This document shows, one piece after another, positions 15,969-51,718 of a stretch of 64,000 nt of DNA (the stretch's first letter is position 1; the number at the start of each line of letters is the position of its first letter). This DNA is from a virus (taxonomy: Duplodnaviria; Caudoviricetes), in IMG/VR virus record IMGVR_UViG_3300031416_000352, positions 6,245-70,244 of that record, one strand, 5' to 3'. Made by a program: the position numbers and the translations under genes. Below the pieces are notes generated by a model, which saw only the letters and a program-made list of their open reading frames with translations, was not told the origin of the DNA and made no database searches.

Positions 15969-16012
15969 CATAGGGTTAGACCAAACGTGCGCGCGGGCCA
16001 ACACTGGCGCGC
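15969..16012 (+). promoter_or_regulatory. Late promoter 1 (terS), predicted leaderless
   Basis: CATAGGGTT (15969-15977), 22 nt, AACACT (16000-16005), 7 nt, ATG; no SD. Confidence 0.75.
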
Positions 16013-17029
16013 ATGGCCACATCACCGGCAGGCAAGAAGCCTGCGCCCCGTAAGACCACCAAAAAGCCTGCAGCAGCCGTGAAGAAGCCTGCAGGCAAAG
16101 CCGCGCCTGCGCCCAAGGGTAAAGCGCCGGCACCGAAGGAGACCGCAGCCCGGACGCCAGCCAAGCCCGCTTCCAAGCCTGCGACAAAGCCAGTCCCCAA
16201 GCCGGGAGCTGCTGTGCGGAAGGCCAAGCCAAAGCCCAAGGAACCACCATATTTGGGCTTGACGCCGAAACAACAGCGCTTTGTGGAGGAATACCTGATC
16301 GACCTGAACGGCACTCAGGCGGCCATTCGCGCCGGATACAGCCCGGATACAGCCCGGTTCATCGGGCACGAAAACCTAACAAAACCCTACATTCAGATCG
16401 CCATCGCGGAAGCTCGGAAGGAGCAGCAGAAACGCACTCAAATCACCGCCGACGCCATGCTGCAGCAGGCCTGGCTCATTGCCACCGCTGATGCACGGGA
16501 GCTGATTGAGACTAAGGTTGCTTGCTGTCGTCACTGCTGGGGAGAGAACTTCCGATATCAGCGCACGGTCAGCGAGATGAACCGTGATCGTGGGCAATGG
16601 CTGGAAGCGGGTAAGGACCCCGCAGAGTTCGATGAAATGGGTGGCATCGGTTTCAACCCTCATCTTCCGCCACACTCTGACTGCACTGCATGTGTGGGCG
16701 ATGGTCATGCACGCGAGGTTATCAAGGACACGCGCTATCTGAGTCCGGCCGCAGTGCAACTCTATGCCGGCGTCAAGCGCACGAAGGATGGGTTGCAGGT
16801 GCTGACGCACAGCAAGGAGGCATTTGCCGAAAAGCTGTGGAAGCACCTGGGACTGTACGAGAAGGATAACCAGCAGAAGACCGACCCTCTATCGGCGCTG
16901 CTGCATCGCATTGCCGGCGGCAACGGCAACGGGTTCACGCCCGTGCAGAACGATCCAGAGAGCGACGAGCCCGCCCCTGGTGGTAGCGCCTTCACGCCGC
17001 GCCAGGAGGTGGAAGACGATGGCGACTAA
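16013..17029 (+). CDS. terS: Terminase small subunit with Lys/Ala/Pro-rich N-terminus and Cys4 insert
   Basis: LTPKQQRFVEEYLIDLNGTQAAIRAGYS motif; CRHCWG...CTACVGDG. Confidence 0.93.
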   Translation: MATSPAGKKPAPRKTTKKPAAAVKKPAGKAAPAPKGKAPAPKETAARTPAKPASKPATKPVPKPGAAVRKAKPKPKEPPYLGLTPKQQRFVEEYLIDLNGTQAAIRAGYSPDTARFIGHENLTKPYIQIAIAEARKEQQKRTQITADAMLQQAWLIATADARELIETKVACCRHCWGENFRYQRTVSEMNRDRGQWLEAGKDPAEFDEMGGIGFNPHLPPHSDCTACVGDGHAREVIKDTRYLSPAAVQLYAGVKRTKDGLQVLTHSKEAFAEKLWKHLGLYEKDNQQKTDPLSALLHRIAGGNGNGFTPVQNDPESDEPAPGGSAFTPRQEVEDDGD

Positions 17030-18821: not shown

Positions 18822-18831
18822 GGACCACACC

Positions 18832-21144: not shown

Positions 21145-21160
21145 CCAGCACCACCCCACC

Positions 21161-21186
21161 AAGCCGCCCACAGAGGCGGCTTTTTT
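21161..21186 (+). terminator. Intrinsic terminator after portal
   Basis: aagccgcc/ggcggctt stem plus T run. Confidence 0.8.
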
Positions 21187-21199
21187 CATGCCCGCCCGG

Positions 21200-21236
21200 C
21201 ATAGGGGTTCAGCATCGCGGCCTTCGCGGGTCGAAT
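21200..21236 (+). promoter_or_regulatory. Late promoter 2
   Basis: CATAGGGGT (21200-21208), 22 nt, TCGAAT; the weakest match of the set. Confidence 0.55.
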
Positions 21237-21298
21237 GGGGCTTCCCCGTCATGGCAAGGGGTTGCGCCGGCAGCCACGGCATCTACTTGGAGAACCAC

Positions 21299-21592
21299 AT
21301 GGCCACCACTCGTTCACGTTTCCTGACCCTCTGTATCGCTTCCCTGGGCTTCATCGCTGCCAGCACCGCCCAGGTGGCCACCGCCAGTTTTACCGCTGTG
21401 CGTGCTGCCTGCTTCTACGTCATGAACGCTGTGACGGACGGCCTGAAGTTGTTCGCGCCAGCTGATCCCATTGGTAAGCCACTGTCCGTAGCGCGCAAGC
21501 AGCTGACCGCCCGCGAGCGGCACGACGTTGGCATGTGGACTTGGCTGCGACCCGTGGTGGCGCGGTATTGGCGCGGTGGCGCGTGGGCTTGA
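21299..21592 (+). CDS. Hypothetical 97-aa protein with hydrophobic N-terminus
   Basis: GGAG RBS; sits in its own promoter-terminator unit between portal and scaffold. Confidence 0.65.
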   Translation: MATTRSRFLTLCIASLGFIAASTAQVATASFTAVRAACFYVMNAVTDGLKLFAPADPIGKPLSVARKQLTARERHDVGMWTWLRPVVARYWRGGAWA

Positions 21593-21618
21593 CCTGTCTC
21601 CCTCTCACACCCTGCAGG

Positions 21619-21640
21619 GCCCGCAACAGCGGGTTTTTTT
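21619..21640 (+). terminator. Intrinsic terminator
   Basis: cccgc/gcggg stem plus T7. Confidence 0.75.
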
Positions 21641-21652
21641 GCGCCCGCCCGG

Positions 21653-21689
21653 TATAGGGCTTAGAGATTTTGTCCTCCGAATCGACAGT
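21653..21689 (+). promoter_or_regulatory. Late promoter 3 (scaffold-capsid operon)
   Basis: TATAGGGCT (21653-21661), 22 nt, GACAGT (21684-21689). Confidence 0.72.
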
Positions 21690-21833
21690 GCCTATCAAGC
21701 CGAGCGCGACAGCGTGACGCGAAGACCGGAGCGCGAAAGCGCTGCGGAATGAATAGCAGATGGCGCAGGCGCTCAGGCGTTCGCACCGGATTGCTGGCCC
21801 CCTGCGGCCACGGCGATATGTGGCGGGACAGTC

Positions 21834-22883
21834 ATGACGACATCAACTCAGGATTTCGATTACTCCAACATCGGCGGCGCTCTGTCGCCGGAGCAGGCGG
21901 CTTTGGCTTTGGCCATGGCCGAGGGCGATACCAGCATCTCGCTGGATAACGGTGGCGCGCCCGCGACCACCACTGCACCGGCCACCACGACCCCAGCTGA
22001 TGGCGATGACAAGGCAGGCAAGCCCGACGCCGCCGACACCAGTACCGACAAGGGTGCGCCCGACACCACGACCGAAGCGGAAGACCCCGCCAAGTCCGTG
22101 GTGCTGGCGCGTGATGGCCGACACACCATCCCCTACGAAACGCTGGTGAAGCACCGCGAGGGCGAGCAGCACTGGAAAGAGCAGGCAGAGCAGGCCCAGC
22201 AGCAGCTGGCAGCCCTGCAGGCCCAGGCTCAAGAGCGGGCAGACGCCGGCAAGGCCCCGACCAAGACCGACAACATGGTTGCCACTGCAGAGGCAGCCAT
22301 CGAAGCGGGCGCGGACGCGGGCCTGTTCGGCGACTTCTCCGAAGAAGCGCTTGCGGCAGGCATTCAGAAGCTGGTCAACCAGCAGGTGGAGGCACAGGTT
22401 CAGGCCCAAGTTGGCAAGGCCCTGGCCCCCCTGCAGGCCAAGCAGCAGAAGGATGCCGCTACCGAGCACTACGAGGCCATCTACAGCAAACACCCAGACG
22501 CGGACTCCATCGCCCAGAGCGTGGAGTTCAAGAACTGGGTGAATGCGCAACCCAGTGTCGTGCGCAACGCCTATTGGGCTCTCTTTGACCCCAAGACCGG
22601 CGGTACCGCCTCCGAAATCGTGGAGGTGTTCGACGCCTTCAAGGGCGCGAATGCATCGAAGCCCACCACCACAGCGGCAGCCGATCCCAAGGCCGCCGCA
22701 AGCGCCGCCGTAGCTGGCGCCAAGACCACACCACCCGCAAGCCTGTCGTCCATTCCTGGTGGACACGCGAGCGGCGCCTCGGTCTTGGACGCCACGGCGG
22801 ATATGTCAGGCCCCGATATGTACGCAGCGACGGAGGGCATGACCCCCGCGCAGCTCGAGGCCTGGCTGAACCGTTCCGTTTAA
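21834..22883 (+). CDS. Capsid scaffolding protein
   Basis: Acidic Ala/Gln-rich coiled-coil protein (IPYETL..HRE) immediately before the major capsid gene. Confidence 0.78.
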   Translation: MTTSTQDFDYSNIGGALSPEQAALALAMAEGDTSISLDNGGAPATTTAPATTTPADGDDKAGKPDAADTSTDKGAPDTTTEAEDPAKSVVLARDGRHTIPYETLVKHREGEQHWKEQAEQAQQQLAALQAQAQERADAGKAPTKTDNMVATAEAAIEAGADAGLFGDFSEEALAAGIQKLVNQQVEAQVQAQVGKALAPLQAKQQKDAATEHYEAIYSKHPDADSIAQSVEFKNWVNAQPSVVRNAYWALFDPKTGGTASEIVEVFDAFKGANASKPTTTAAADPKAAASAAVAGAKTTPPASLSSIPGGHASGASVLDATADMSGPDMYAATEGMTPAQLEAWLNRSV

Positions 22884-22893
22884 GGAGCCAGAC

Positions 22894-24186: not shown

Positions 24187-24246
24187 TGGTCCAGGGGCTG
24201 GCTACGGCCGGCCCTGTCTTCTCCCCCTTATTTCTCGGAGGCCATC

Positions 24247-24726: not shown

Positions 24727-24788
24727 TCGCTGACGGCTACGGGGCGGGCTTCGGCCTGCCCTATGCCCATCAACCGCAGGAACCAGTT

Positions 24789-25280: not shown

Positions 25281-25281
25281 T

Positions 25282-25950: not shown

Positions 25951-25955
25951 CCCGG

Positions 25956-26016
25956 TATAGGGTTAGCCAGTCTGCGCCAGCACGGGAAAACTGCCTGGAA
26001 CGAACATTCCAGGAGT
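25956..26016 (+). promoter_or_regulatory. Late promoter 4 with leader hairpin overlapping the SD
   Basis: TATAGGGTT (25956-25964), 22 nt, AAAACT (25987-25992); cctggaa/ttccagg hairpin overlaps AGGAG. Confidence 0.75.
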
Positions 26017-26022
26017 GCCCAA

Positions 26023-26820
26023 ATGGCCATCACCACCAGCTATCCCAAGGGCATGGAGCGCTTGCTCCAGGGCTCCATCAACTTCGCAACCGACACAATA
26101 AAGGTTGCGCTTGTAACTGACGCTTATACCTACAGCGCTGCTCATGAGTTCGTCTCGCAGCTCGGGACGCGCGTGGGCGACGACATCACCCTGGTCAATA
26201 AATCGATCACGGGCGGGGCCTTTGACGCCGATGACGCAGAGACCGCGCCGCTGGTGCCGGGCAGCACCATCAAGGCTATCGTCATCTACAAGGACACGGG
26301 CAACCCCAGCACTTCGCCGCTGCTGCTGTACCGCGACAACGTGACTGGCTTCCCTCTGGCGACCAACGGCGGCGCGGTCAAGCTGCCATGGGACAACGGG
26401 CCGCTCCGTATCGCTGCACTGCTGGCCCCGTTCTTCCCCGCAGGCGGTGAGCTGGTACTGGGCGCCGGGGTGAATTTCCTCGCCGATGATCTGAAGGTCA
26501 CGCTGCTGCCGGCCTCGTTTGATTCCAGTGGCACCTATCGCTTCCTGGCGGACGTGGGCACCACGCTGGGCACTGCCCAAGCCTTGACCGGCCGCACCAT
26601 CACCGGCGGTGTGTTCAATGCCGACGACGTGGAATTCGGGGCTGTGTCGAGCGGCTCGCCAGGCTCGGTGCTGCTCTACAAGGACACGGGGGTGCCAGAG
26701 ACCTCGCCCGTGCTCCAGCGCATCACCCAGGTGGCAGGCTTCCCATTTGCAGCCAACGGCGGCGGCTTCACGCTTCGCTGGTCTGATGGCGCACTCAAGA
26801 TTTTCAGCCTGATCCCGTAA
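26023..26820 (+). CDS. Virion structural protein made of two tandem ~130-aa homologous domains
   Basis: Both halves share ITGG.F.ADD, YKDTG.P.TSP.L and GFP.A.NGG...L.W..G. Confidence 0.75.
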   Translation: MAITTSYPKGMERLLQGSINFATDTIKVALVTDAYTYSAAHEFVSQLGTRVGDDITLVNKSITGGAFDADDAETAPLVPGSTIKAIVIYKDTGNPSTSPLLLYRDNVTGFPLATNGGAVKLPWDNGPLRIAALLAPFFPAGGELVLGAGVNFLADDLKVTLLPASFDSSGTYRFLADVGTTLGTAQALTGRTITGGVFNADDVEFGAVSSGSPGSVLLYKDTGVPETSPVLQRITQVAGFPFAANGGGFTLRWSDGALKIFSLIP

Positions 26821-26829
26821 GGAGGCGCC

Positions 26830-27921: not shown

Positions 27922-27928
27922 TTGAGCC

Positions 27929-34461: not shown

Positions 34462-34908
34462 ATGACAGCCCCGGCACACCTTTGCTACACGATCTACCAG
34501 GGAGCGACGTTCCGGCGTCGCTTCCGGTGGTGCACCGCGCCATATCCCACCAAGCTCCTCAACGGCAAGCTGGTGCATGCGCAGACCGGCCGGCCTGTTC
34601 CCGACACTGATCTGGTGCCGGTGGACCTGACGGGCTGCACGGCCCGCACGCAGCTGCGCTCGGACGTGCTTGCGCCTGACGTGTTGCTGGAGCTCACCAC
34701 CGAGAACGGCCGGATCGACCTGTCTCTGGGTGATGGGCACATTGCTTTTTTCCTGGACGCCGCGACTACCGCTGGCTTGCCTTATGGCGAGTCTCCGCCC
34801 ACGCGCTGGCGCACTGCCGTTGGCCAACTGGAGGTGGTGCACCCTAATGGCGATGTGACGCGCGCGGCCGAGATCTCCTGGAGCCTGAATCCTGAGGGCA
34901 CGCGATGA
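34462..34908 (+). CDS. Tail fibre adaptor-like protein (BppU-like)
   Basis: IYQGATF...PVDLTGCTARTQLR...LLELTTENGRI motif. Confidence 0.75.
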   Translation: MTAPAHLCYTIYQGATFRRRFRWCTAPYPTKLLNGKLVHAQTGRPVPDTDLVPVDLTGCTARTQLRSDVLAPDVLLELTTENGRIDLSLGDGHIAFFLDAATTAGLPYGESPPTRWRTAVGQLEVVHPNGDVTRAAEISWSLNPEGTR

Positions 34909-35411: not shown

Positions 35412-35412
35412 T

Positions 35413-35931: not shown

Positions 35932-35936
35932 AGCAC

Positions 35937-36665: not shown

Positions 36666-36668
36666 TCT

Positions 36669-37838: not shown

Positions 37839-37845
37839 AACCGCA

Positions 37846-37888
37846 CATAGGATTTTGAGGCCATGACCTGGTTCAACAAAATCCTTGC
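37846..37888 (+). promoter_or_regulatory. Late promoter 6, predicted leaderless
   Basis: CATAGGATT (37846-37854), 22 nt, CAAAAT (37877-37882), 6 nt, ATG. Confidence 0.65.
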
Positions 37889-40006
37889 ATGAGCAAACAA
37901 GGAGCAAGCATGCGAGGCTTCCAACCGGCCAAGGGCAAGGCCAAAACTTTTGCCAACGGAGGTCCTGTGCGTGGCCCCGGTACCGGTACTTCTGACGAGG
38001 TGACGGACACCGTGCCCAATGGCACCTACATCATGCCAGCCGACAGCACCCAAGCCGTGGGTGAGCAGCAGCTGGCGGCCATGGGTGGCGCGCCGCGTGG
38101 GTTTGCGCCGGCCAACGCCGCACCTCAAGGTGACGGCGTCCCCGTGCAACTGAGCAATGGCGAGTTCAAGCTGCCACCCGAGCAGGTGCATGCCATTGGC
38201 GTGCAGGCGCTTGATCAGATGAAGAACGCGACTCACGCCCCCGTGGCTGCGCGGGGCTTCCCTGCAGGTGCTGTAGGTGCGCCACAGCGGCCGGAGCCAC
38301 CACTGTTCTTCGCGGACGGCGGCCTGGTGGATGACGAAAATCGCCGACCGAACAGCTTTGGCGATGCGGCCGCCACGGTTTCCACCCCTGGCACTACGCT
38401 GGTGACCACCCCGGCGACTGCACCTGCACCTGCACCTGCACCTGCACCTGCACCTGCACCTGCACCTGCACCTGCACCTGCACCTGCAGCTGTGCCCAGT
38501 GCTGCTTCCACGCCGATCAACATCTTCCCCGGTAACCGCCTGCAGGGCGACAGCGGTGCCACTGGTGCGCCATCTCCGGCCATCACCCCCGCTGCTGCAA
38601 CCCCAGCTGCCATGGCTCCTCCAACCGCCACCCCCGTGCTTGACCCTCAGGTGCGAGCAGACAGAGCAGCAATCGGCTCTGCCTGGGACACTGTCAAGGA
38701 TGTGAGCAATGATGCCGGCCGCGCCATCGCGGATGTGGCCTCTTTGGTGCCGCGCGGGCTGGTCGGGGCCTATGACAGTGCTGTGGTGCGACCAATGCGC
38801 GCTGCAGGGCTCGATGCGGCATACCTAAGCCCCAAGCTTGTGCCCGATGGTGTCGATCCTTCAAGCATGACGCCGTTCACCGACCAGAAGCGTATGCAGC
38901 AGGCCGCTGCAGCAACTGTGGCTCCTGGCCAGCAGCCGCTGCCCACCGGCGTCAACCCATCGACCGCTGGTGCAGGGCGAGGAGCAGTTAATCCGCCGTT
39001 GGCTGCCCCGATTGCTCCAGCGGTATCGACTGTTGGTCTTCCTCCAGCAGCTGCCCCTGCACCCGCAGAGCCACCCGCCAACCAAGTTATGCCGGGTGTG
39101 TATCGCACGGGAAACAGCTATGGTGATTCTCCCGAGGCGGCCCGGGCTGGTGCTCAGCCGCGCGGGTTGCCTTCCGCTCAAAACATGGCAGCTGCTGATG
39201 CTATGTCACAGCGGCAGGTAGATTCCGCCTTGCAGGCACCCCGTGGCTTTGCTCCGGGCGTGCCTCAGTTCGCCGCGCCCCAGGTCTCCACCAGCGCGAA
39301 TGACTGGGAGACCCGGAACAACCTGCGCAACCTGGAAGTTTCTGCGAGTTCGATCACCAACAACGGTGGGCGCTTCGATCCTCGCCGTGGACGCAACACT
39401 GGACCGTCCCCGGCTCAGGCGGCCTACACGGATGCGCTGCGTGCCGACCTGACAGCTCGCGGCCTCCAGCCCAGCTTGGACAACTCCACCAACCAGATCA
39501 ATGCAGGCCTGCAGCGCGAGGAAATGCAGCAGGCGGGCAGCAATCAGCGCAACGCCGCAGACAACGCCGCGCGCGCCGCTGAATTCACCAACCGTGGGTT
39601 TGTTGACAGAAGCCGTCTCGCGCTGGAGCAGGACCGCCAGGCCACCGATAGCAAGGTCCGCGGGTTCGAGATCCGTGCGGGTGAGCGGCAAGAGCGCCTG
39701 CAGCAGCAATATGCGGCCGCCAAAACGCCGCAAGAGCGAGAAGCCATCGCCAAGCAGATCCGCGACCTGGCCGGCAAGCCCGACCAGTCACCCTGGCGCG
39801 TTCAGGTGACACCATCCGTCAAGAACGTGGATGGCAGCACCAGTGAAGGCAGTGTGATTCGTTACAACGACCAGACGGGGGCTGTCGAAAAGGTGGATCT
39901 GAGTGGCGGAACAGCTATGCCTTCAGGAATGGTCAAGCAGGTTGGTACTGCTGATGGAAAGCCTGTTTACGAGGATGCTCACGGGAAGAGGTTCGTTGCA
40001 GGATAA
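37889..40006 (+). CDS. Internal virion (ejection) protein, Pro/Ala-rich
   Basis: 705 aa; N-terminal FANGGPVRGPGTGTSDEV...LSNGEF motif; low-complexity middle; helical C-terminus. Confidence 0.75.
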   Translation: MSKQGASMRGFQPAKGKAKTFANGGPVRGPGTGTSDEVTDTVPNGTYIMPADSTQAVGEQQLAAMGGAPRGFAPANAAPQGDGVPVQLSNGEFKLPPEQVHAIGVQALDQMKNATHAPVAARGFPAGAVGAPQRPEPPLFFADGGLVDDENRRPNSFGDAAATVSTPGTTLVTTPATAPAPAPAPAPAPAPAPAPAPAPAAVPSAASTPINIFPGNRLQGDSGATGAPSPAITPAAATPAAMAPPTATPVLDPQVRADRAAIGSAWDTVKDVSNDAGRAIADVASLVPRGLVGAYDSAVVRPMRAAGLDAAYLSPKLVPDGVDPSSMTPFTDQKRMQQAAAATVAPGQQPLPTGVNPSTAGAGRGAVNPPLAAPIAPAVSTVGLPPAAAPAPAEPPANQVMPGVYRTGNSYGDSPEAARAGAQPRGLPSAQNMAAADAMSQRQVDSALQAPRGFAPGVPQFAAPQVSTSANDWETRNNLRNLEVSASSITNNGGRFDPRRGRNTGPSPAQAAYTDALRADLTARGLQPSLDNSTNQINAGLQREEMQQAGSNQRNAADNAARAAEFTNRGFVDRSRLALEQDRQATDSKVRGFEIRAGERQERLQQQYAAAKTPQEREAIAKQIRDLAGKPDQSPWRVQVTPSVKNVDGSTSEGSVIRYNDQTGAVEKVDLSGGTAMPSGMVKQVGTADGKPVYEDAHGKRFVAG
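38420..38488 (+). repeat. (GCACCT)11 hexanucleotide tandem repeat encoding (AP)11
   Basis: Direct reading of 11 perfect units plus GCA. Confidence 0.97.
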
Positions 40007-40510
40007 CTATTTGTCACTGTCTAACTTGCCATCGAACGGTTTTAGATTCGCAGGTGGGGTGATCCATTGCGAATCCGAATGCGTAGATTTGCCCTGACCT
40101 TCAACAAGGTTCCCACCGAAACGGTCGCGCTCAGGTTGTGCGGCCGTTTGAGGCTGTGGCGATACAACGGACGGCACCTTCACCGGCGCAACAACCATTC
40201 CCACCAGCAGCACCGCCCCCGCCAGCATTGAAAGTAGGGCGGCCAGCTTTGCCAGCCCGGCCCATAGGATGTGACCCGTGTACTTGTTGGCGGCGCGCCA
40301 GATCCCCACATTGACGATCACCACATACACACAGAAGGCGGCACCGATGAGCACCGCAGGCGTGCTGCCGGGGCTGCACAGCCCCACGGGAGCAAGAACC
40401 AGGATGCTCCCCAGCACCCCGAATCCCCAGTAGGTCAAGGGCAGTCCGAACTGCCCGCGCCAAAGCTTTTCTAGTGTGTTCATACACAGTATTCTGAAGC
40501 ATGTTGCCAT
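40007..40510 (-). CDS. Hypothetical membrane protein (moron, convergent)
   Basis: LEKLWRGQFGLPLTYWGFG and GIWRAANKY motifs, three to four hydrophobic segments. Confidence 0.75.
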   Translation of the reverse strand: MATCFRILCMNTLEKLWRGQFGLPLTYWGFGVLGSILVLAPVGLCSPGSTPAVLIGAAFCVYVVIVNVGIWRAANKYTGHILWAGLAKLAALLSMLAGAVLLVGMVVAPVKVPSVVSPQPQTAAQPERDRFGGNLVEGQGKSTHSDSQWITPPANLKPFDGKLDSDK

Positions 40511-40632
40511 GATGGAATTCGTTCACCTATTGTGGTTTTTGGGGTGAACCACCATAGTCCTTTGACTGTTATGCTGATCGTGCAGTGCAAGACTGATCGC
40601 AAAAGTTGAGCCGGTCAGGTTGCTGTTGAGAA

Positions 40633-40655
40633 CTTGCTAGCATATATCTAGCAAG
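40633..40655. promoter_or_regulatory. Palindromic operator-like site
   Basis: CTTGCTAG-N7-CTAGCAAG perfect inverted repeat upstream of the DprA-like gene. Confidence 0.45.
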
Positions 40656-40736
40656 CTCTCCCCATCTTAGAGGGGCTCGGGCAGCGTAAAACAATAGAGC
40701 AATCGTGGCTGGAAGCCATCTTCAAAACGTGAGATA

Positions 40737-40752
40737 CTGTGTTTTTATCCAG
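40737..40752. promoter_or_regulatory. LexA (SOS) box upstream of the DprA-PRTase cassette
   Basis: taCTGtgtttttatcCAGtg, directly before the GGAG RBS and ATG 40766. Confidence 0.8.
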
Positions 40753-40765
40753 TGGAGCTACAAAC

Positions 40766-41701
40766 ATGCATGACATGCATTCTGAACTGCCGTTTGCGCC
40801 AGATGCGGATGCTGCACGTCATGAGTGGAGGCTCATCTTCAAGTGCAAGCCGGTTGACGTCCACACCGAACTAGGTGCTTACGAGTACCTGTGGCTACAG
40901 AGCAAGACATCGGTCAAGCGGATGGCAGAGTTGTTCAATGACAACCCAAATGCATTGCCCTCTGACCTTGTTGATTTCGATATTGCGGTGGATACAGCTA
41001 ACCAAGTAGTCGCCCATTTCACAGAGAAGGGCTTGGAGGAATTTGGTGTGCGAGTGCATGGGGCCGACGAATACCCAGATAGTTTGCGGGATGCTGTTGA
41101 GCCTATTGAAATGCTTTACTATCAGGGCGATTGGGAGTTGGTAGAGTCACCAAAGCGTGTGGCAGTTGTGGGCACGCGCAATATTTCACCAGAAGGCGCG
41201 GCACGTACGCGTAAATTAGTTAAAGCTCTTGTGGAGCATGATTTCACGGTTGTATCAGGTTTGGCTAAAGGTGTAGACACTGTTGCTCACCGTACTGCCA
41301 TTGAGTGCGGTGGCAGGACTATTGCTGTTATCGGTACACCACTAACAGAAGTGTATCCACGGGAAAATCAAGATCTTCAGCGTGAAATTGCTTCTAAGCA
41401 TCTTGTTATCAGTCAGGTGCCTGTTCTGAAATATCTACAGCAAGATTATAGAATGAACAGATTATTTTTTCCTGAGCGCAATAAGACGATGTCTGCTTTG
41501 ACCAATGCGACAATTATTGTCGAGGCTGGCGAGACATCAGGAACATTGATTCAAGCAACTGCAGCCTTGAAGCAAAACCGAAAACTTTTCATTTTGGAAA
41601 GTAATTTCCATAATCCTAACATTTCTTGGCCTGCAAAGTTTGAGAAGCTTGGTGCAATTCGCGTTCGCGACTTTGATGACATTGTAATAAATTTGAACTA
41701 A
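40766..41701 (+). CDS. DprA/SMF-family protein, ShosA-like antitoxin of a ShosTA-type defence system
   Basis: VAVVGTR, VVSGLAKGVDTVAH, IAVIGT, FFPERNKTMSAL...IIVEAG..SGTL motifs; lacks the C-terminal domain of competence DprA; low GC. Confidence 0.88.
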   Translation: MHDMHSELPFAPDADAARHEWRLIFKCKPVDVHTELGAYEYLWLQSKTSVKRMAELFNDNPNALPSDLVDFDIAVDTANQVVAHFTEKGLEEFGVRVHGADEYPDSLRDAVEPIEMLYYQGDWELVESPKRVAVVGTRNISPEGAARTRKLVKALVEHDFTVVSGLAKGVDTVAHRTAIECGGRTIAVIGTPLTEVYPRENQDLQREIASKHLVISQVPVLKYLQQDYRMNRLFFPERNKTMSALTNATIIVEAGETSGTLIQATAALKQNRKLFILESNFHNPNISWPAKFEKLGAIRVRDFDDIVINLN

Positions 41702-41702
41702 T

Positions 41703-42392
41703 ATGCGAATGCAAATTGTTGGTGAAATAGAGCGGCGACAGCACTATCATCTAAATGCACAGCATGTGTGTTATTTCTTTGGCGAATACACGCCTCATGA
41801 GTACACAGAAGGTCGCAGAGCTAGTTTTTCTGAGACTAATCAGCATATTAGCAACCTCAAGAAGAGCATGACTCGCAAGGGGATGCATGATTGGCACTAT
41901 AAGGCTAACGCAATTGATATTGCAGGAAAGCGGCTTTTTGATGCAATAAACTGGGAGACGGCAGTTAAAGACGCTACATTTATACCCGTGCCACCATCCA
42001 AAATTAGAACCGATGCAGCATATGATGATCGGATGCTAAAGGTTCTTCAGCGTCTCAATAGTCGTCTCCCTTTTGAACTTGACATAAGGGATATGTTGAT
42101 TTCAGATGGCAGCCTTAATGCAAGTCATGAGAACAATGGCAGAGCTACACCTGAAGAAATTTCAAAATCAATTTCTTTCGACGAAGCGCTGGCGGGAAAG
42201 CTTCCGGCACCAAAATACTTGTTTGTGCTAGATGATGTTTTAACAACTGGATCGCACTTCGTGGGCATATCACAGTTGTTGTCCCAGAGGTTTCCAGGGG
42301 TACCTATCGTCGGGTGTTTTGTAGCAAGGACTGTTAGACCTGAAACAGATTTCAGTGCAATATTTGACGATTCCCCAGATATAGATTTTTAA
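41703..42392 (+). CDS. Phosphoribosyltransferase (ComF-like), ShosT-like toxin
   Basis: FIPVPPS and PRPP-binding VLDDVLTTGSHF motif; abuts the DprA-like gene; low GC. Confidence 0.85.
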   Translation: MRMQIVGEIERRQHYHLNAQHVCYFFGEYTPHEYTEGRRASFSETNQHISNLKKSMTRKGMHDWHYKANAIDIAGKRLFDAINWETAVKDATFIPVPPSKIRTDAAYDDRMLKVLQRLNSRLPFELDIRDMLISDGSLNASHENNGRATPEEISKSISFDEALAGKLPAPKYLFVLDDVLTTGSHFVGISQLLSQRFPGVPIVGCFVARTVRPETDFSAIFDDSPDIDF

Positions 42393-42451
42393 TTTTTGTT
42401 CGCAGTTCTTTATACCGTTTAGTTCACGTATGGTTGGTGCTTACTCCCCGG

Positions 42452-42494
42452 TATAGGGCTTAGCCATCCCCCACCCAGGGAGCAGAGTGGGGGG
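42452..42494 (+). promoter_or_regulatory. Late promoter 7 (giant protein), predicted leaderless
   Basis: TATAGGGCT (42452-42460), 22 nt, CAGAGT (42483-42488), 6 nt, ATG. Confidence 0.72.
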
Positions 42495-45400
42495 ATGGCA
42501 AACGAATCCCTTAAGCCCTTCGCGGGCGAGCTCGATACCACTCAGTCCATCAAAGCGAAGGGGCTGCAGCCCTTCAAGGGCGTACTTGATGGTGATGAAG
42601 AAAAACGGTCGACAGGCGAAGCCTTCAAGGACGTGGGGCTCGGTCTGGCCCAGGGCGCGGCTGGCCTAGTCAAATCCGCTGGCGATGCCTACGGCCTTGT
42701 CACCGGTGACATGGACAACACCGTGTCGAAAACGGCTGGCGGCTGGCAGGAATCGCTGGACAAGGAAAAGTCCGCCGGCTTCCAAGCGCGCGCGGCGCGG
42801 CGCAAGGAGAACATCGACGCGCAAGACTCAACCCTGGGCAAGGCATGGACGGCGGTAAAGGACACGGTAACCGATCCAGCGCTGGCGCTGGATACCGTGG
42901 CTACGAACGTTTCGACGCTGATCCCTGGTGCATTGGCTGGCCGGGCTGTGGCGGCAGCCCGGATGGCGCAAGCTGCGCGTGTAGGCCTCACCGGCGAGGC
43001 CGCTGCTGCAGCTGCAACCCAGGCCGGCAAAGCCGGTACCGCTGCTGCTCTGGGCACCGGTGCGGCTCAGCAGGCAACGGATGTTTCCGCCCAGGCATAC
43101 GAAGACAACACCAAGAAGGATGAAGCCATCTGGGATGCCAACCCAGAATTCCAGGCCGCGCTGGCCGCCAACGGTGGTGATCGCGCGAAAGCCAAGCATG
43201 ACCTGTCGTTGGACGCAGCGCGCGCAGCCTTCCTGCCTGCAGCTGGCATTTCGCTGGCGGCCAACGCTGTGCCCGGCGGCGCGATGTTGGAAAAGGCCCT
43301 GGTGGGCGGTGCTGCCCGCGAGGTGGCCAAGGAGGGCGCAAAGCTCGCCGTTCCGAAGGCCATCGCCAAGACGGCGCTGGGCGAGGCCACCGGTGAAGCC
43401 ATCGAAGAGGGTGGTGGGCAATATGCCGCTAACGTGGCGGCCCAGCAATACATCGACCCGAACCAGGATCTGATGAATGGGGTGGGCGAGAACGCTGGCT
43501 TGGGCGCTGCCGGCGGCCTGCTCATGGGCGCTGCTGGTGGTGCGTTCCACGGCCACCGGCCAGCACCAGGTAGCCAGCAGGAACAGCAAAATGCCTTGGA
43601 TGCTGCCAACCAGGCAGCGGCCGATGCTCTGGAGGGTTCGCCTTCGGCGCTTGAGGCCCAGCAGTGGAGCACCGCCCCTGGCGCAGCGCCTGATGGCGCG
43701 CCTGACCAAACACAGGCCGCCAGCCCGTTGTATGACCCTCGCATTGACGGCATGAGCACCAGCCCGGGCGCCGCGCAGGCGCAGGGCAATGAAGTGGAAT
43801 TCACCCGCGACTTTGATACGGCTGGGCTTGCGCTGGCTCCTGATGCGCCTGCTGGTGCGCCAGCAGCACCAGGTCCAGACGCTGCCGCAGATCTGGCTCA
43901 GGTGCTCGACCAGCGCACGCCAGCGCAACGCATGGGCCTGGATGAAAACGCCGGCACCATGTCTGCAGCTGCCGTGCTGGCCGTAAATTCCGGCGCCGCA
44001 GGTCAACTGCAGGCGGCATCTGCTGCCGCTGCCGCACAGCAGCAGGACGCCAAAGCGCAGGAGCCGGCGGCCAAGACTACCTCTGCCGCACCAGCATCAG
44101 CAGTGGACGCCGATGGCCACAGCTTTGACGATGCGCGCATGCCGGAGCTGGCCCCCGAGGAATTCACCGCCCGCCAGCGCAAGCTCAACCAAGAGCTGTC
44201 GGTTGCGATGAACAACAACGACCGGCCAGCACTGTCCCGGATCGGCGATGCCAAGCGTGAACTTTTCAACGGCAGCCGTTCGACTGCGGACCTCATGGCT
44301 GACTACAACGCCGCCGAGGGCAGCCGTGAGGCGACGGCCAAGCACGAGCAGCGCGGCATCCGCGACGAGCTGGGAAAGCGCGGTCTGGTGGTCGAGCGCC
44401 AGGTGCAGAACGACAGCGGCGAGGTGCGCTTCACGGCCAAGCCCATCACCCAGAACACCCAGCAGGCGCCAGAGCCCGGCGTCTACGCCACCTACGAGGA
44501 CGCCCGTAAGGCGCGTGGCGAGCAAAACGCACGCGGCACGAGCGTGAAGGTGATTCCCAGCCCGGTAGAGGGCGGTTTCATCCTGGCGGCCAAGGGCACC
44601 CCCGAATACGTCGTTGGCGAGAAATACGCCGAGCAGCGGCGCAAGCAGGATTCAGCCGCAAACCGCCAGAAGATGGCCGAGAGCAATGCCAAGTACAAGG
44701 CTGCTGCGGACCTGGCCAAACAGCTCAAGGCAGAGCGGGAGGGTGCCCAGAGCGCCCAGGCCGCCGCCGCGTCCACCATCAATCGAGTTCAAACCACAGG
44801 AGAAACTGCCAATGGCATTGAAGCCGATCAAGCCCAGCAAGCGGGCCCGCAACGCATCGCGCCAACTGGCGATGGCGGAAGCATCGCTACAGAAAACGCT
44901 GGACCGGGCGCGCGAGCGCCGCGAATTGTTGCAAAAGGCCGGGCTGCAGCCGGGCCAGTTGACGGCGCGGGCAGTGGCCAGCCTGCACAAGGCCTGACCG
45001 ATGGCTCCACCACGACTGCGAACCCTGGAGCGAAAGCATCGCCAGCGCCAAGCCCGCAAGCTCAAGCGCAAGAGCCAGCACAGCAGCGCGCCCAGCAGCT
45101 CGATGATGCCGGCGCCGCCTGGGCCCGCATGCCCGCCGCTGAGCGTCAGGGCGTTGCCGCCCGGCTGGATGGTGTAAAGCCGGTCATCGCTAAGAACCTT
45201 CCCAAAAGTCAATGGAAGAACCTGAATGGCGACCTGCAACGCAAGATCGCCGATGCCATTGCGCCAGCACCAGTAAGCTCTAACGCCCCGATGCAGGCAC
45301 CAGAACCAGCTGGTGCACCTGCTGGCCCCGTGCAACCTGATGCCCAGGCGAGCGCCGCGAGCGAACCTGCACCGACGGCCGAGAGCGCAGCGGTGGCGTC

Positions 45401-48400: not shown

Positions 48401-51400
48401 AGAAGCAAACCCAGGCAGAAGCGACAACTGGGTCAAGCAGCTGCATTATGCGGTGTCGGTTGAGGAATCGCTGGCGGAAATCTCGGAAGACCTGACCCGT
48501 AATCGAATGGTGGGCACAAAGCGCACTGTGCTGGTTCGCCGCTTGTCTGCGGCGCTGTCCCGCATTGCAGACTCCCTTGGCTTCCATGGGCTGGCCGCGC
48601 ATATTCGCTCTCTGAACCTGACCCAGACCGAGCGCTTTGTGCTCAACACCATCAGCATGGCCTCGCCTGGGAACACAACCCCGTTCAATGGCCCTGCAAA
48701 TGGTCCTGCTGTTCGGTACCGCGCAACCGCCACAGTCAAAAATGACGGCCTGGGGGCTGCAGCGACCGCCATCAAGGATGGCGCAATGGCCTATGTGCAC
48801 GACGCCATGAACCAGGCGCCGGGCACCGTGCACTGGTGGCACAAGACCGTGGGCACCATGAACAACCTGGCCGAGCGCAACCCTGCTTTCAAACCGGTGT
48901 TTGAAGCCGCCCAGCAGTTTACCGACGACGTTTCGAGCTTGGCGAACGACGTGGCCAACCAGGCCCCGCGCCTGATTCCGCGACTGGAAAGCCTGGGTGA
49001 CCTCAAATTCTGGGGCAAGGATGCCCGCAAGCCCATCAGCGGCGAGGACAACACCGCAATCGCCAAGCCGCTTTTCGAGGGCACGCTGATGTGGACCCGT
49101 GACATCCACGGCAAGCCCATCACCGTGGATGCGTTGGAAAAGGAGACGGACACCTGGGACACCAGCACCAAGGAGCACTACCTGATCGCCACCAAGGAGC
49201 TGACCGCCCCCCAGGCGCGGGCCTGGCAGGGGCTGCCGCTGGCCCAGTATGAAAAGCTGGTGACCGACGCATTCAAGAACAAGGTGCTCAAACCCGGCAT
49301 TCGCTGGACGGACGCCGAGCTGCGCAGCATGTTCAAGCTGAGCGACGGCCAGCTGAGCCTGTTCAAGGAGGCGCGCTCCACCATCGACGCCAGCATCGAC
49401 ACGACGGCGCGGGCCGACATGATGCGCATGATCGGCGAGGAATACCGCGACATGCGCGAAGCGGTGATGGAGGCTCCAACGCTGGATGACGCGCTCACCC
49501 TGGTGACCCGCACCTTGCAGGATGAAGCCAAAGCCAACCCAGATAGCAGCGAACGCCTCATGGCGCTGCACAACTCGGTGGTGGCCGGTGCGACTAAGGC
49601 ACGCGATCTGATCGCCAAGGGGTATGCGCCTCTGTCCCGCTTTGGCAGCCACACCGTGGATGTGCTGGACGCAAAGGGCGAGCGGCTGTATTTCGGGCTC
49701 TTCGAGACTGCCCGGGAGGCAGACGCCATGCAGGCCAACATGGCCGAGGTCTATAAGGGTGAGCCCGGCGTTCAGATTGGGCGCGGCACTTTGTCCAAGG
49801 AGGAATACAAGCTGTTTGCTGGTGTGACCCCTGAAAGCCTGGAGGCCTTCGGCACCATGCTGGGCCTGGACACGGAAGGCAACGAAGCCAAGGACGCGGC
49901 ATTCCAGGAATACATCCGCCGCACCAAAAACAACCATTCGGCCCTCAAACGCCTGATCCACCGCAAGGGCATCGCCGGTTACAGCCAGGACGTGGGCCGC
50001 GTGCTGGCGTCCTTCGTCTACAGCAATGCACGCCAGGGTGCTGGCGCATTGAACGCGGGCATCATGGAGAAGGCGATCCAGGAGATCCCCAAGCAGCAGG
50101 GCCAGCTGCGGGACGTGGCCATGGGCTTGCGCTCCTATATCCAGGACCCCCAGGAGGAAGGCCAGGCCGTGCGCGGCTTCCTGTTTGCCCAGTACCTGGG
50201 GGGCTCCGTGGCCTCGGCCGTGGTCAACATGCTGCAGCCGGTGCAAATCACCTTCCCATGGCTCAGCCAGTACGGTGGGGTCAAGCAGGCTGGCGCGCAG
50301 CTCACCCGGGCATTCAAGGACATGGCCACGGTGGGCAAGACCTACGAGCCGGACTTGGCGAAAGCCTTGAAGCGGGCAGAGGACGAGGGCACGGTCAGCC
50401 CGCAGGAAATCCACCAGCTGATGGCGCAGGCCCGGGGCGAGGCCAGCCTGCGCGCTGGCGACGGCACCGCGCTGGGTAACGCTCGGGCAACTGCCAGCAA
50501 CGCCTGGCGCCGCACGGTGGTGGCCTGGGGGCAGCCGTTCGCCTGGGCCGAGCAGCTCAACCGCCGCTCTACCTTCATTGCGGCCTACCGGATCGCCGTG
50601 GCCGAGAAGATGGCCGACCCCGACGCTTTTGCGGCCAAAGCCGTAAAAGAAACACAATTTCAATATAGTAAGTCAAATAAAATGCGCTGGGGCCGAGGCG
50701 CCATCGGCGGAACGCTGATGACTTTCAAGTCCTACTCGGTGAGCTACCTGGAGCTGATGGGCCGTATGTGGAACGCCGGTACGCCCGGCTCGCAGCAGCG
50801 CGCGGAGTCCCGCAAGGCACTGGTGCTGATGGTGGCCATGCTGGCGCTGATGGGCGGCGCCGGTGGCCTGCCGTTCGTCGAGGACGTCGAGGATCTGGTC
50901 AACGGCCTCATGAACAAGATGGGCTACAACTGGGACAGCAAGCAAGCGCGCAAGCAGTTTCTGCAGCAGGTGATCGGCCAGGCTGGCGCCGAGTTCATCA
51001 ACAGCGGTATCTCGGGCCTGCCAGGCATGCCCATCGACGTGGCCGGCCGCCTGGGTATGGGTAACCTGATTCCTGGTACCGGCTTGGTCGGTCCACAGAC
51101 TGACAAGAGCCGAGATCTGCTGGAGCTTGTGGGGCCAGCTGGTGATTTTGCGAAACGCATCTTCAATGCCGCTGGCATGGCCCTGGGCGGTTCCGTCGGT
51201 AGCGCAGCTCTGGAGGCGTCTCCCGGCGCTGTGCGTAATGCGGTCAAGGGTGTCGATATGGCCACCAGCGGCATGTACAAGGACGGCCGGGGCTACAAGG
51301 TCATCGACACGAACCTGGGTGAGGCGCTGTCCAAGTTCATCGGTTTCCAGCCCCGTGCGGTGGCCGATGTGCAGGAGGCCAATGGCGCGATGCAGAAAAG

Positions 51401-51680
51401 CCGCGCCTTCTACACCCAGCAGAGCGCCGACATCAAGGCGCAGTGGGCGGACGCGCTTTTCCGCAAGGACGAGGCAGCGCTGGAGAGCGTGCGCGAGCGT
51501 CTGGCCAGCTGGAATCGAAAGAACCCTGACATGCCTATCGTGGTGCAGATGCCCCAGATCTGGAAGAAGGTCCGTGAAATGGGCAAGGATAAGCAGCAGC
51601 GGATCGCCGACACCGCGCCAAAGGCCCTGCGTCAGCAGATGCGGGAAATGGCGCGGGAAGCAGGGGGCGCCCCGGTATAG
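42495..51680 (+). CDS. 3061-aa polyvalent internal virion protein (InPase, ART-PolyVal, two zincin-like peptidase motifs, PLxRFG)
   Basis: GNYRKGHV...IENP.GS.R...HYGY...GADKDHVDVF; FKRWFGDSKVVDADGKPLVMYHGT...GFDGI...EQIKSATGN; LLHEMIH and FHELFH; GYAPLSRFG. Confidence 0.88.
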   Translation: MANESLKPFAGELDTTQSIKAKGLQPFKGVLDGDEEKRSTGEAFKDVGLGLAQGAAGLVKSAGDAYGLVTGDMDNTVSKTAGGWQESLDKEKSAGFQARAARRKENIDAQDSTLGKAWTAVKDTVTDPALALDTVATNVSTLIPGALAGRAVAAARMAQAARVGLTGEAAAAAATQAGKAGTAAALGTGAAQQATDVSAQAYEDNTKKDEAIWDANPEFQAALAANGGDRAKAKHDLSLDAARAAFLPAAGISLAANAVPGGAMLEKALVGGAAREVAKEGAKLAVPKAIAKTALGEATGEAIEEGGGQYAANVAAQQYIDPNQDLMNGVGENAGLGAAGGLLMGAAGGAFHGHRPAPGSQQEQQNALDAANQAAADALEGSPSALEAQQWSTAPGAAPDGAPDQTQAASPLYDPRIDGMSTSPGAAQAQGNEVEFTRDFDTAGLALAPDAPAGAPAAPGPDAAADLAQVLDQRTPAQRMGLDENAGTMSAAAVLAVNSGAAGQLQAASAAAAAQQQDAKAQEPAAKTTSAAPASAVDADGHSFDDARMPELAPEEFTARQRKLNQELSVAMNNNDRPALSRIGDAKRELFNGSRSTADLMADYNAAEGSREATAKHEQRGIRDELGKRGLVVERQVQNDSGEVRFTAKPITQNTQQAPEPGVYATYEDARKARGEQNARGTSVKVIPSPVEGGFILAAKGTPEYVVGEKYAEQRRKQDSAANRQKMAESNAKYKAAADLAKQLKAEREGAQSAQAAAASTINRVQTTGETANGIEADQAQQAGPQRIAPTGDGGSIATENAGPGARAPRIVAKGRAAAGPVDGAGSGQPAQGLTDGSTTTANPGAKASPAPSPQAQAQEPAQQRAQQLDDAGAAWARMPAAERQGVAARLDGVKPVIAKNLPKSQWKNLNGDLQRKIADAIAPAPVSSNAPMQAPEPAGAPAGPVQPDAQASAASEPAPTAESAAVASAAHEAATSQQNDLPAPTEAQLDAGNYRKGHVRINGLDISIENPAGSKRRPEWPALKNHYGYLKGTVGADKDHVDVFLTDRASDSSLPVFVVDQVNRDGTFDEHKVVLGAANEADARQAYLDNYAKGWTGLGAITEMTQDEFKAWARDPSKTKVPAGKPGGRSADSNSEQNASKITSEFPLKEAASSYSGISHSGTSRAKADAAEFDAYLDKARKEGEAVARSEAQKAAVDAAVDALRADYLAQYRRLMGVRADTYSGFVAGRSGLNSKQADKRNSAYDRAIDTFVGWQKANQDRARQSALDARTEAEKTADRQAAKQALADKAKRKEDGNLGLMRKILSWNKDGDPVAVSKTANLAGVNLGRDGYPSSIKLVPTDGTTLTDNKFDLAALFRTKGMTVPDSKKRVRDLVDAVRAEDANTPEVDSSTKLDQTSTAAFKRWFGDSKVVDADGKPLVMYHGTSGSQNGEAFTSFDVYASNYGLMGMGGYFTADPAVASSYTAKGKGDTPSVYPVYLSIKKPLDMDAPADVAAWKKQFPDAESYHESGTSNESWYRAAEESVQEKGLPRWEGAEVMQDSLRAMGFDGITHIGGGRVKTDGVQHRVFIAFEPEQIKSATGNSGAFDAADPNITAFGTREARAGTPTDRALMDMVREGKPAQDLLQLISGTSKSRFNKQVARLLMKAKVSPTVALEAGALGGDGNFTFLARYRRSTDTIGLTAGAQAQAEQILLHEMIHAATLKALDRKGVASVQMRKLYEHVKKQGGANGTYGMKNVGEFVAEAFTNPEFQRQLKQMSAPQGNVLKSAWDSLVRILHTILGLPVDSTNALSQALTLGVEVMRENVALRRRQEGSVAAKKPEVRYRTENTGQSNQAEGKPFTVAQAEAIVQGLRKGAPFLKGVQVVADPSQVPEIARDWDPSIQAIPKGATLSTGEVYIFAGGHSSKLDLIQTVFHELFHSGVLRLGDGNVHYNTMVQMAKSDPRVEHGARAWRETEVGRAQMDAIREANPGRSDNWVKQLHYAVSVEESLAEISEDLTRNRMVGTKRTVLVRRLSAALSRIADSLGFHGLAAHIRSLNLTQTERFVLNTISMASPGNTTPFNGPANGPAVRYRATATVKNDGLGAAATAIKDGAMAYVHDAMNQAPGTVHWWHKTVGTMNNLAERNPAFKPVFEAAQQFTDDVSSLANDVANQAPRLIPRLESLGDLKFWGKDARKPISGEDNTAIAKPLFEGTLMWTRDIHGKPITVDALEKETDTWDTSTKEHYLIATKELTAPQARAWQGLPLAQYEKLVTDAFKNKVLKPGIRWTDAELRSMFKLSDGQLSLFKEARSTIDASIDTTARADMMRMIGEEYRDMREAVMEAPTLDDALTLVTRTLQDEAKANPDSSERLMALHNSVVAGATKARDLIAKGYAPLSRFGSHTVDVLDAKGERLYFGLFETAREADAMQANMAEVYKGEPGVQIGRGTLSKEEYKLFAGVTPESLEAFGTMLGLDTEGNEAKDAAFQEYIRRTKNNHSALKRLIHRKGIAGYSQDVGRVLASFVYSNARQGAGALNAGIMEKAIQEIPKQQGQLRDVAMGLRSYIQDPQEEGQAVRGFLFAQYLGGSVASAVVNMLQPVQITFPWLSQYGGVKQAGAQLTRAFKDMATVGKTYEPDLAKALKRAEDEGTVSPQEIHQLMAQARGEASLRAGDGTALGNARATASNAWRRTVVAWGQPFAWAEQLNRRSTFIAAYRIAVAEKMADPDAFAAKAVKETQFQYSKSNKMRWGRGAIGGTLMTFKSYSVSYLELMGRMWNAGTPGSQQRAESRKALVLMVAMLALMGGAGGLPFVEDVEDLVNGLMNKMGYNWDSKQARKQFLQQVIGQAGAEFINSGISGLPGMPIDVAGRLGMGNLIPGTGLVGPQTDKSRDLLELVGPAGDFAKRIFNAAGMALGGSVGSAALEASPGAVRNAVKGVDMATSGMYKDGRGYKVIDTNLGEALSKFIGFQPRAVADVQEANGAMQKSRAFYTQQSADIKAQWADALFRKDEAALESVRERLASWNRKNPDMPIVVQMPQIWKKVREMGKDKQQRIADTAPKALRQQMREMAREAGGAPV

Positions 51681-51718
51681 GGTTCGACGGCAGAGGGCTG
51701 GCCCGAGAACATCGGGCC
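51676..51718 (+). promoter_or_regulatory. Late promoter 8 (lysis), predicted leaderless; box overlaps the stop codon of the giant gene
   Basis: TATAGGGTT (51676-51684), 22 nt, GAACAT (51707-51712), 6 nt, ATG; no SD. Confidence 0.78.

Follow-up and report, generated by a model that had tools for sequence, protein, structure and literature searches.

How does a large temperate podovirus switch on its packaging, injection, and lysis genes, and where do the mRNAs of these genes begin? The question is raised by a 64,000-nucleotide (nt) stretch of the IMG/VR record IMGVR_UViG_3300031416_000352 (positions 6,245 to 70,244 of that record; this whole stretch is referred to here as the window), which covers most of a 70.2-kb provirus akin to the Burkholderia phages Bcep22 and BcepIL02 and to Pseudomonas F116-type phages. 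An original prediction, made from the letters of the window alone, described a box, YATAGG(G/A)(T/C/G)T, that recurs eight times, each copy being followed 22 nt downstream by a hexamer resembling a -10 element, and proposed that five of the genes concerned are transcribed from the A of their own ATG and yield leaderless mRNAs. Our comparative analysis shows that box and hexamer constitute a real and widely conserved family of late promoters and indicates that a small protein encoded just before the terminase gene terS is a probable new activator of this family. Four key late genes (terS, the gene at 34462, the gene for a giant injected protein, and the holin gene) very probably give rise to leaderless mRNAs.

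Each of the eight boxes and each of the eight hexamers sits in the window where it had been reported, and the spacing is fixed: the 22 nt run from the last base of the 9-nt box, such that the hexamer begins at box start +31. The pattern YATAGGRBT has 11 matches in the window, against 1.73 expected, a number that is reached in none of 100 shuffles, and eight of the 11 matches are intergenic and on the plus strand. The boxes at 51751 (within a gene) and 6708 have no hexamer, and we regard them as chance matches. Because circularity was to be avoided, sites were scored with a position weight matrix (PWM) trained on the sites of relatives only, for which the maximum in shuffled sequence is 13.1 bits. 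Six window sites (34419, 25956, 51676, 15969, 21653, and 42452) score from 22 to 39 bits. The site at 21200 is borderline, with orthologous copies in the related loci L028, L029, and L043, and the site at 37846, in which GGA replaces GGG and the upstream CCC is missing, scores no better than chance. By this measure, the supposed eight-member family consists of six strong sites, one moderate site (21200), and one doubtful site (37846); the sites are numbered P1 to P8 in Table 1.

The same arrangement recurs far beyond the window. A search with terS returned 80 related viral loci, and a scan of about 85 related phage loci, in which sites were chosen by the box alone, yielded 107 distinct sites. 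An nAnnnT hexamer begins at +31 in 83 of these sites and at +32 in 10, with no more than 4 at any other offset, and among 35 box matches on the minus strand, a single one is accompanied by such a hexamer; the conservation of motif and spacing that the original prediction had proposed to check in relatives is thus borne out. Upstream of terS, more than 50 relatives share a layout of a C-rich run, a TAGGGTT core, (c/a)gac, a variable stretch of about 15 bases, one of the hexamers AACACT, AAGACT, and GACACT, 6 to 8 further bases, and ATGGC. In these relatives, whose terS products are 55 to 80% identical, the box, the hexamer, and the position of the ATG are kept, with free variation in the 22 nt that separate the box from the hexamer. 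In relatives that seemingly lack the box, its position is taken by CTAGGGTT or TGTAGGGTT, and F116 has boxes reading CCCCC-TGTAAGG(T/A)T and TGTAGGGTT, each with hexamers. Since variants such as CTAGGG, TGTAGGG, and even TAAGG occur, the invariant core is best written as CCC-N4-TAGGG(T/C)T, and the box as first defined, although a real motif, was drawn too narrowly. Five whole related proviruses have four to seven sites each, on the strand of the late genes, and in them an ATG at +43 to +45 opens terS, the gene of the giant protein (2630 to 4764 amino acids [aa]), the holin gene, and other open reading frames (ORFs). Neither the box nor the candidate regulator was detected in BcepIL02 or in Pseudomonas phage USP_25.

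The anatomy of these sites resembles that of an activated promoter with weak core elements. We numbered the hexamer as -12 to -7, on the assumption that it is the -10 element, and profiled 92 sites. These have CCC at -48 to -46 (84 to 91 of the 92), T at -43 (68/92), TAGGG at -41 to -37, T at -36 (65/92) and at -35 (80/92), G at -33 (62/92), A or G at -32, C at -31 (65/92), G at -14 (60/92), A at -9 (70/92), and a preference for C-A at -1/+1; the A at -11 and the T at -7 are imposed by the selection of the sites. The TcGAC at -35 to -31 amounts to a TTGAC-like -35 element with a 17-bp spacer, so most sites are not "-35-less," as had been claimed. Together, CCC-N6-GGG forms an inverted repeat spanning -48 to -37, with its center at about -42.5, and in some relatives CCCTATAGGG is a perfect palindrome. 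The position of this repeat, which abuts the -35 region, is class II-like and would suit a dimeric activator.

The likely start of transcription can be read from what lies downstream. Three unrelated kinds of element begin 6 to 8 nt after the hexamer: start codons, genes for an initiator-type tRNA-Met, and a conserved leader block. The ATG is found at +43 to +45 in 45 of the 107 sites, and at 17 capsid-operon sites an AAGC block begins after a variable 6 to 8 nt. That elements so different keep a common distance would place the start of transcription there, which in turn implies leaderless mRNAs where the element is a start codon. The hexamer is, moreover, equally conserved ahead of leaderless ORFs, ORFs led by a Shine-Dalgarno (SD) motif, and the tRNA, and is therefore a signal for transcription and not for translation. 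On the same grounds, we ruled out that the hexamer acts as a substitute for the SD motif.

At all five genes that had been named as leaderless, the ATG lies 6 to 7 nt past the hexamer, and for four of them (16013, 34462, 42495, and 51719) the assignment stands. None of the four has an alternative, SD-led start, and an SD motif is missing at 16013, 34462, and 51719, compared to its presence in 24 of 30 ordinary genes of the window; the giant gene at 42495 is the exception, with AGGGAG 11 to 16 nt upstream. The homologues of terS align from residue 1. The site ahead of 34462 combines the window's best PWM score with the lack of an SD motif, of an alternative start, and of any hairpin. A layout matching that of P7 precedes the 2630- to 4764-aa orthologues of the giant protein in the relatives G001 to G005, and the holin sites of G001, G002, G003, and G005 are identical in layout to P8, whose box overlaps the stop codon of the giant gene. 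The exception is the gene at 37889, which encodes a 705-aa ejection or internal virion protein: an ATG at 37910 sits behind AAGGAG, the G002 orthologue opens with MRGFQPA directly after GAAGGAGG, and the true start is almost certainly this SD-led ATG, not a leaderless one. Overall, however, the core of the original idea, i.e., an activator-dependent class of late promoters starting on the A of the ATG, has strong comparative support, and it is the "-35-less" character and the fifth leaderless case that have to be given up.

A related start codon problem is evident in F116, where the annotation of terS (L127:4727-4780; about 22726 to 22779 of the record) places the start at a CTG. An ATG in the same frame, 74 nt 5' of this CTG, adjoins a promoter of the form CCCCC-TGTAAGGTT ... 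ACAATT ccgggtc ATG, and the annotated start is probably wrong.

Sites of the leaderless type have a further feature, a GC-rich inverted repeat that encloses the hexamer and ends 0 to 1 nt before the ATG. This hairpin is found in about 34 of 50 leaderless-type sites of relatives and is absent from non-leaderless sites and tRNA sites, with a mean minimum free energy of -10.7 kcal/mol at leaderless-type sites versus -5.0 kcal/mol at non-leaderless ones. The complementarity is specific to each site: the mean best stem is 4.94, as against 3.94 +/- 0.15 with permuted partners, and none of 2000 permutations reaches the observed value. A tally of wobble pairs, as a means of telling an RNA hairpin from a DNA one, gave sparse counts (3 G.T/T.G versus 4 C.C). 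Within the window, the hairpin is clear at terS (-12 kcal/mol) and at the holin gene (GGCCCG/CGGGCC, with the hexamer in the loop; -13.6 kcal/mol, z of -3.5); the giant gene has a weak one, and 34419 has none. With +1 at the A of the ATG, the hairpin would be confined to read-through RNA or to the DNA itself. Our tentative preference is for a role in silencing the AUG of read-through transcripts, which would tie the proteins to activator-dependent starts.

The likely activator of the box promoters is the product of the gene at 15018-15545. This protein matches PHROG 8117 (phrog_8117), to which no function is assigned; it has no Pfam or NCBIfam family at an E value of <=1 beyond noise and, by the same libraries, does not belong to the Mu Mor/C, P2 Ogr, or RinA/ArpU family. 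In its AlphaFold2 model (predicted local distance difference test score of 82), the C-terminal helix is 44 residues long, and the winged helix-turn-helix (wHTH) superposes on the DNA-binding domains of DtxR, IdeR, and GntR with a root mean square deviation of 1.3 to 1.5 A over about 61 residues, the Foldseek E values being only about 1e-2. A Foldseek search of the PDB matched the wHTH alone, with no structure aligning across the full protein, and a protein atlas returned only unnamed clusters and an AbiEi_4 label at 11%. Regulator and box are both present in 62 loci and both absent from 23, and the 15 discordant loci are mostly truncated or have variant boxes; furthermore, three clades of the regulator track variants of the box. 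Homologues with 41 to 46% identity are encoded by the Pseudomonas phages F116, H66, PA8, and JBD90, and that of F116 (p37) is directly upstream of terS. A search of genome contigs with the regulator gave one named match, an uncultured Comamonas, and the regulator is present in 14 of 301 genomes sampled from the host family of that Comamonas genome.

Searches of PHROGs, Pfam, and NCBIfam with the proteins of the window and of the other 6.3 kb of the record detected no RNA polymerase or sigma factor, no protein of the record matches the Q family, and consensus sigma-70 promoters are lacking between 15 and 35 kb (0 found versus 3.4 expected). A terminator-like hairpin that closes the preceding (early or middle) unit stands directly 5' of P1, and another terminator stands just 5' of P2. 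The terminators abutting these two promoters, together with the lack of sigma-70 consensus sequences, fit several activator-dependent units and not one antiterminated transcript.

We consider it likely, on the comparative evidence, that activator-dependent promoters fused to start codons account for these data. The late promoters would be read by the sigma-70-type RNA polymerase of the host and would have three parts: the box CCC-N4-TAGGGTT at about -48 to -35, usually a TcGAC at -35 to -31, and a weak -10 element (nAnAnT) exactly 17 bp farther on. The winged-helix protein, probably a dimer formed through its coiled coil, would bind the box and recruit or stabilize the polymerase, presumably late in infection, and transcription would start 7 to 8 nt after the hexamer. 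At terS, the 34462 gene, the giant gene, and the holin gene, this start would coincide with the A of the ATG, leaving no leader and committing the mRNA to the leaderless pathway of translation, whereas P2, P3, P4, and perhaps the site at 37846 would employ the same promoter with ordinary leaders. The wider proposal, that F116-like or Comamonas-type, Bcep22-related podoviruses combine a new activator family with start-codon-fused promoters, a silencing hairpin, and, in some, a promoter-fused tRNA(fMet) that would enhance leaderless translation late in infection, is offered tentatively, as it is doubtful that all of its parts will hold.

Several observations weigh against this account. The commonest gap between hexamer and ATG, 7 nt, exceeds the mode in Escherichia coli by 1 nt, and at three tRNA sites the gap to the tRNA is only 5 nt. 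In Proteobacteria, leaderless translation is generally inefficient. The tracking of box variants by the regulator is only suggestive, because there are but three clades. Finally, the hairpin is not predicted by a plain promoter model. It would become a genuine feature of the mRNA if the box itself were the -10 element (with TAGGGT as TAnnnT) and transcription began about 7 nt after it, resulting in an SD-less leader of about 30 nt that has the hexamer in the hairpin loop and ends at the AUG. This arrangement has a precedent in the Thermus phage Lalka27a, in which a late -10 element of TAGGGT is experimentally supported, and it accords with the invariant T and A at box positions 3 and 4 and with the T at position 8 in 65 of 107 sites. 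We nevertheless judge it unlikely. Among the 83 hexamer-positive sites, 25 (30%) have no T at what would be -7, including the conserved TAGGGC[TAG] of the capsid operon; the invariant GGG falls on the positions that are read least in a sigma-70 -10 element; and neither a -35 element nor an extended -10 lies upstream. Such a start also leaves unexplained both the placement of the ATG, the tRNA 5' end, and the leader block 6 to 8 nt past the hexamer and the retention of the hexamer at SD-led and tRNA sites, and an SD-less AUG set against a GC-rich stem would be translated poorly.

Other readings of the module depart further from a conventional promoter. That many hairpins end 0 to 1 nt before the ATG and have site-specific complementarity would fit an endonuclease that cuts a long polycistronic RNA at the 3' base of the hairpin and so frees mRNAs, and the tRNA, with the AUG or the tRNA end in first place, box and hexamer being processing or protein-binding signals. 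Yet P5, like the sites ahead of the tRNA and the capsid operon, shares the geometry without the hairpin, the rigid 22-nt spacing and the -10-like A/T signature are those of a promoter, and the terminators directly 5' of P1 and P2 argue for separate units; we give processing little credence. Under antitermination of the lambdoid kind, the box would combine a promoter with a Q-binding element, and the hexamer would be a sigma-dependent pause site close to the promoter at which an antiterminator loads. This strikes us as highly improbable, even though the regulator gene is located, as Q would be, immediately ahead of the late genes and the hexamers AACACT and AAGACT resemble -10-like pause elements such as that at lambda pR'. 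Besides the missing Q-family protein, there are eight modules per genome and not one, each module is followed at once by an ORF and not by a terminator, and the fixed position of the ATG or tRNA would have no explanation. We attach next to no probability to promoters for a phage RNA polymerase, whether a T7-type single-subunit enzyme or one carried in the virion, that would initiate within TATAGGG and take the first G as +1. TATAGGG presumably resembles positions -4 to +3 of the T7, SP6, and K11 promoters, and the giant protein weakly matches a virion RNA polymerase family (phrog_2206; E = 8.5e-11). That match is limited to the N-terminal, nonpolymerase part, however, and the CTAGGG, TGTAGGG, and TAAGG of relatives break the TATA, while an injected polymerase would serve early and not late genes; with no RNA polymerase gene in the 70-kb record, this possibility was rejected.

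Promoters of the class also occur in front of elements other than leaderless genes. Eight related proviruses encode a tRNA-Met(CAT) of the initiator type. Its mature 5' end lies 5 to 9 nt past a late-promoter hexamer, so that hardly any 5' leader, or none, would be transcribed along with it. These tRNAs start with CGCGG and end with CCGCA-ACCA, giving the C1 x A72 mismatch of initiator tRNA (that of L041 starts with A at position 1 according to ARAGORN). The anticodon stem was read for four loci (L031, L034, L037, and L045) and is GGG[CTCATAA]CCC there, with the three G:C pairs (29-31:39-41) that mark a bacterial initiator tRNA(fMet). No tRNA is present in the phage of the window. Extra initiator tRNA is reported to boost leaderless translation strongly and selectively (PMC9031893), which gives the promoter-fused tRNA(fMet) of the relatives a plausible role and suggests a concrete reason why some phages carry such a tRNA.

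In the window, P2 drives a short unit, either a 113-aa ORF beginning at 21251 or an RNA. The unit (21195-21650) is flanked by two terminator-like T-runs, and the ORF (21251-21592) has no family match and is present only in the closest relative. A block, TCCCCGTC(A/C)TGGCAAGG, is conserved in the unit, and in L029 a CTG stands where the ATG would be expected, so the product of P2 might be a small RNA and not a protein. At P3, the predicted +1 is the A of the conserved AAGC, which leaves a leader of about 137 nt up to the ATG at 21834. This leader (21697-21833) begins with AAGCnnnnCGCGCGAGCG...GCGAAG and is conserved ahead of the scaffold/capsid operon in many relatives, and it may be a regulatory 5' untranslated region; an Rfam scan found no known RNA family in the window, including this leader.

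The string of late genes is interrupted between the ejection protein and the giant protein by a DprA-like gene and other nonvirion genes (40007-42392), and P7 lies directly after this block, where late transcription would be restarted. Beyond the lysis and anti-defense genes, a UmuC/ImpB-type Y-family polymerase gene (56140-57441, minus strand; IMS, IMS_C, and DUF4113) is either prophage cargo or flanking host DNA. In both BcepIL02 (L008, gp49) and F116 (L127, p47), a CsrA-like RNA-binding regulator is encoded inside the block of virion genes and could bear on the posttranscriptional control of late genes.

TABLE 1 Late promoters, the candidate activator, and associated features of the window, with tRNA-Met loci of related proviruses
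Feature	Coordinates	Strand	PWM score (bits)	Description
Candidate late activator, 175 aa	15018..15545	+		wHTH at the N terminus, small beta domain, and long helix at the C terminus; final regulatory gene ahead of terS
Intrinsic terminator-like hairpin and T-run	15936..15960	+		GGCCGCCCTCGGGCGG then TTTTCTTTC, read from the sequence
P1 (terS)	15964..16012	+	29.7	CCC 15964-66, box 15969-77, -35-like TAGAC, hexamer AACACT 16000-05, ATG 16013 = predicted +1; leaderless candidate
P1 hairpin	15990-16012
terS	16013
terL	~16.9 kb
Portal	18832
Intrinsic terminator	21161..21190	+		8-pair stem then TTTTTCATGCC; after portal gene
P2	21195..21243	+	12.1	Box 21200-08 (CATAGGGGT), hexamer TCGAAT 21231-36, leader ~7 nt
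P3 (scaffold/major capsid operon)	21648..21696	+	23.3	Box 21653-61 (TATAGGGCT), hexamer GACAGT 21684-89, predicted +1 at 21697
Major head protein	22894
P4	25951..25999	+	33.0	Box 25956-64, hexamer AAAACT 25987-92; SD-led gene at 26023 (AGGAG)
P5	34414..34461	+	38.6	Box 34419-27, -35-like TCGAC, hexamer GACACT 34450-55, ATG 34462 = predicted +1; leaderless candidate
P6 (doubtful, weak)	37846..37909	+	0.9	CATAGGATT, hexamer CAAAAT 37877-82
P7 (DarB-like injected protein)	42447..42494	+	22.0	Box 42452-60, hexamer CAGAGT 42483-88, ATG 42495 = predicted +1; leaderless candidate
P7 hairpin	42470-42494
DarB-like injected protein, 3061 aa	42495-51680
P8 (holin and lysis cassette)	51671..51718	+	32.4	Box 51676-84, hexamer GAACAT 51707-12, ATG 51719 = predicted +1; leaderless candidate
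P8 hairpin	51696-51718
Holin	51719
Endolysin	52012
tRNA-Met	L031:3506-3582
tRNA-Met	L034:3801-3875
tRNA-Met	L037:2704-2780
tRNA-Met	L041:5017-5093
tRNA-Met	L045:5244-5319
tRNA-Met	L046:754-830
tRNA-Met	L057:5159-5234
tRNA-Met	L065:3162-3238

If transcription starts map as predicted, leaderless late expression would no longer be confined to Thermus phages but would include temperate phages that infect Beta- and Gammaproteobacteria, in which leaderless mRNAs are rare, and PHROG 8117 would, if our reading is true, be defined as a new family of late activators, together with the DNA site that these proteins bind. F116 in Pseudomonas aeruginosa offers a tractable model in which the system can be tested directly. 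Gene starts are corrected as well (that of F116 terS, and from 37889 to 37910 in the window), and the promoter layout provides annotators with a simple rule for telling where late promoters and genuine start codons lie in this large group of prophages.

The original prediction held that such promoters had not been described for this phage group, which appears correct: a literature search brought up no account of late promoters in Bcep22-like or F116-like phages, although the general strategy is known from Thermus phages. In phiYS40, most middle and late mRNAs are leaderless, and IF2 of the host goes up while IF3 goes down, a shift of the initiation machinery that favors leaderless translation (review, PMC3594737). 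Lalka27a has 16 late promoters with the -10 element TAGGGT, from which starts were mapped 6 nt downstream, and its transcripts are mostly leaderless (bioRxiv 10.64898/2026.04.20.719267). Like the system proposed here, both of these phages combine the host polymerase with a phage-specific class of late promoters and with start codons at the 5' ends of mRNAs, and the motif TAGGGT is shared with Lalka27a. In Lalka27a, however, TAGGGT is the -10 element, whereas in the present phages 41 nt separate it from the ATG downstream, with a distinct nAnAnT at the -10 position. The hosts differ in that Deinococcus-Thermus bacteria use leaderless mRNAs routinely, those of the present phages being Beta- and Gammaproteobacteria, and only some of the late units would be leaderless here.

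With respect to regulation, the closest parallels are the activators of class II phage late promoters, i.e., C/Mor of Mu, Ogr of P2, and RinA of staphylococcal phages (encoded upstream of terS; PMC3152322), each a small DNA-binding protein encoded just before the late genes. In these systems, too, a repeated site adjoins or overlaps the -35 region, the core elements are weak, and the late genes form several transcription units. The regulator of the window differs in falling outside their families, with its own combination of wHTH, beta domain, and coiled coil. We know of no description of a systematic fusion of promoter and start codon for the Mu, P2, or RinA promoters. The lambda PRM-cI pair is a further analogue, as PRM is activated from a site centered at about -42, by contact with sigma region 4, and its mRNA begins with the AUG; in lambda, however, this arrangement serves a single gene for the maintenance of lysogeny, as opposed to a multipromoter late regulon for packaging, injection, and lysis. 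Among the nearest phages, F116 (Hollowayvirus) and Bcep22/BcepIL02 (Lessievirus) share a related virion module, terL, portal, and a giant DarB-like protein with the phage of the window, and F116 differs in its TGTAAGG and TGTAGGG boxes and in a holin gene that is led by an SD motif.

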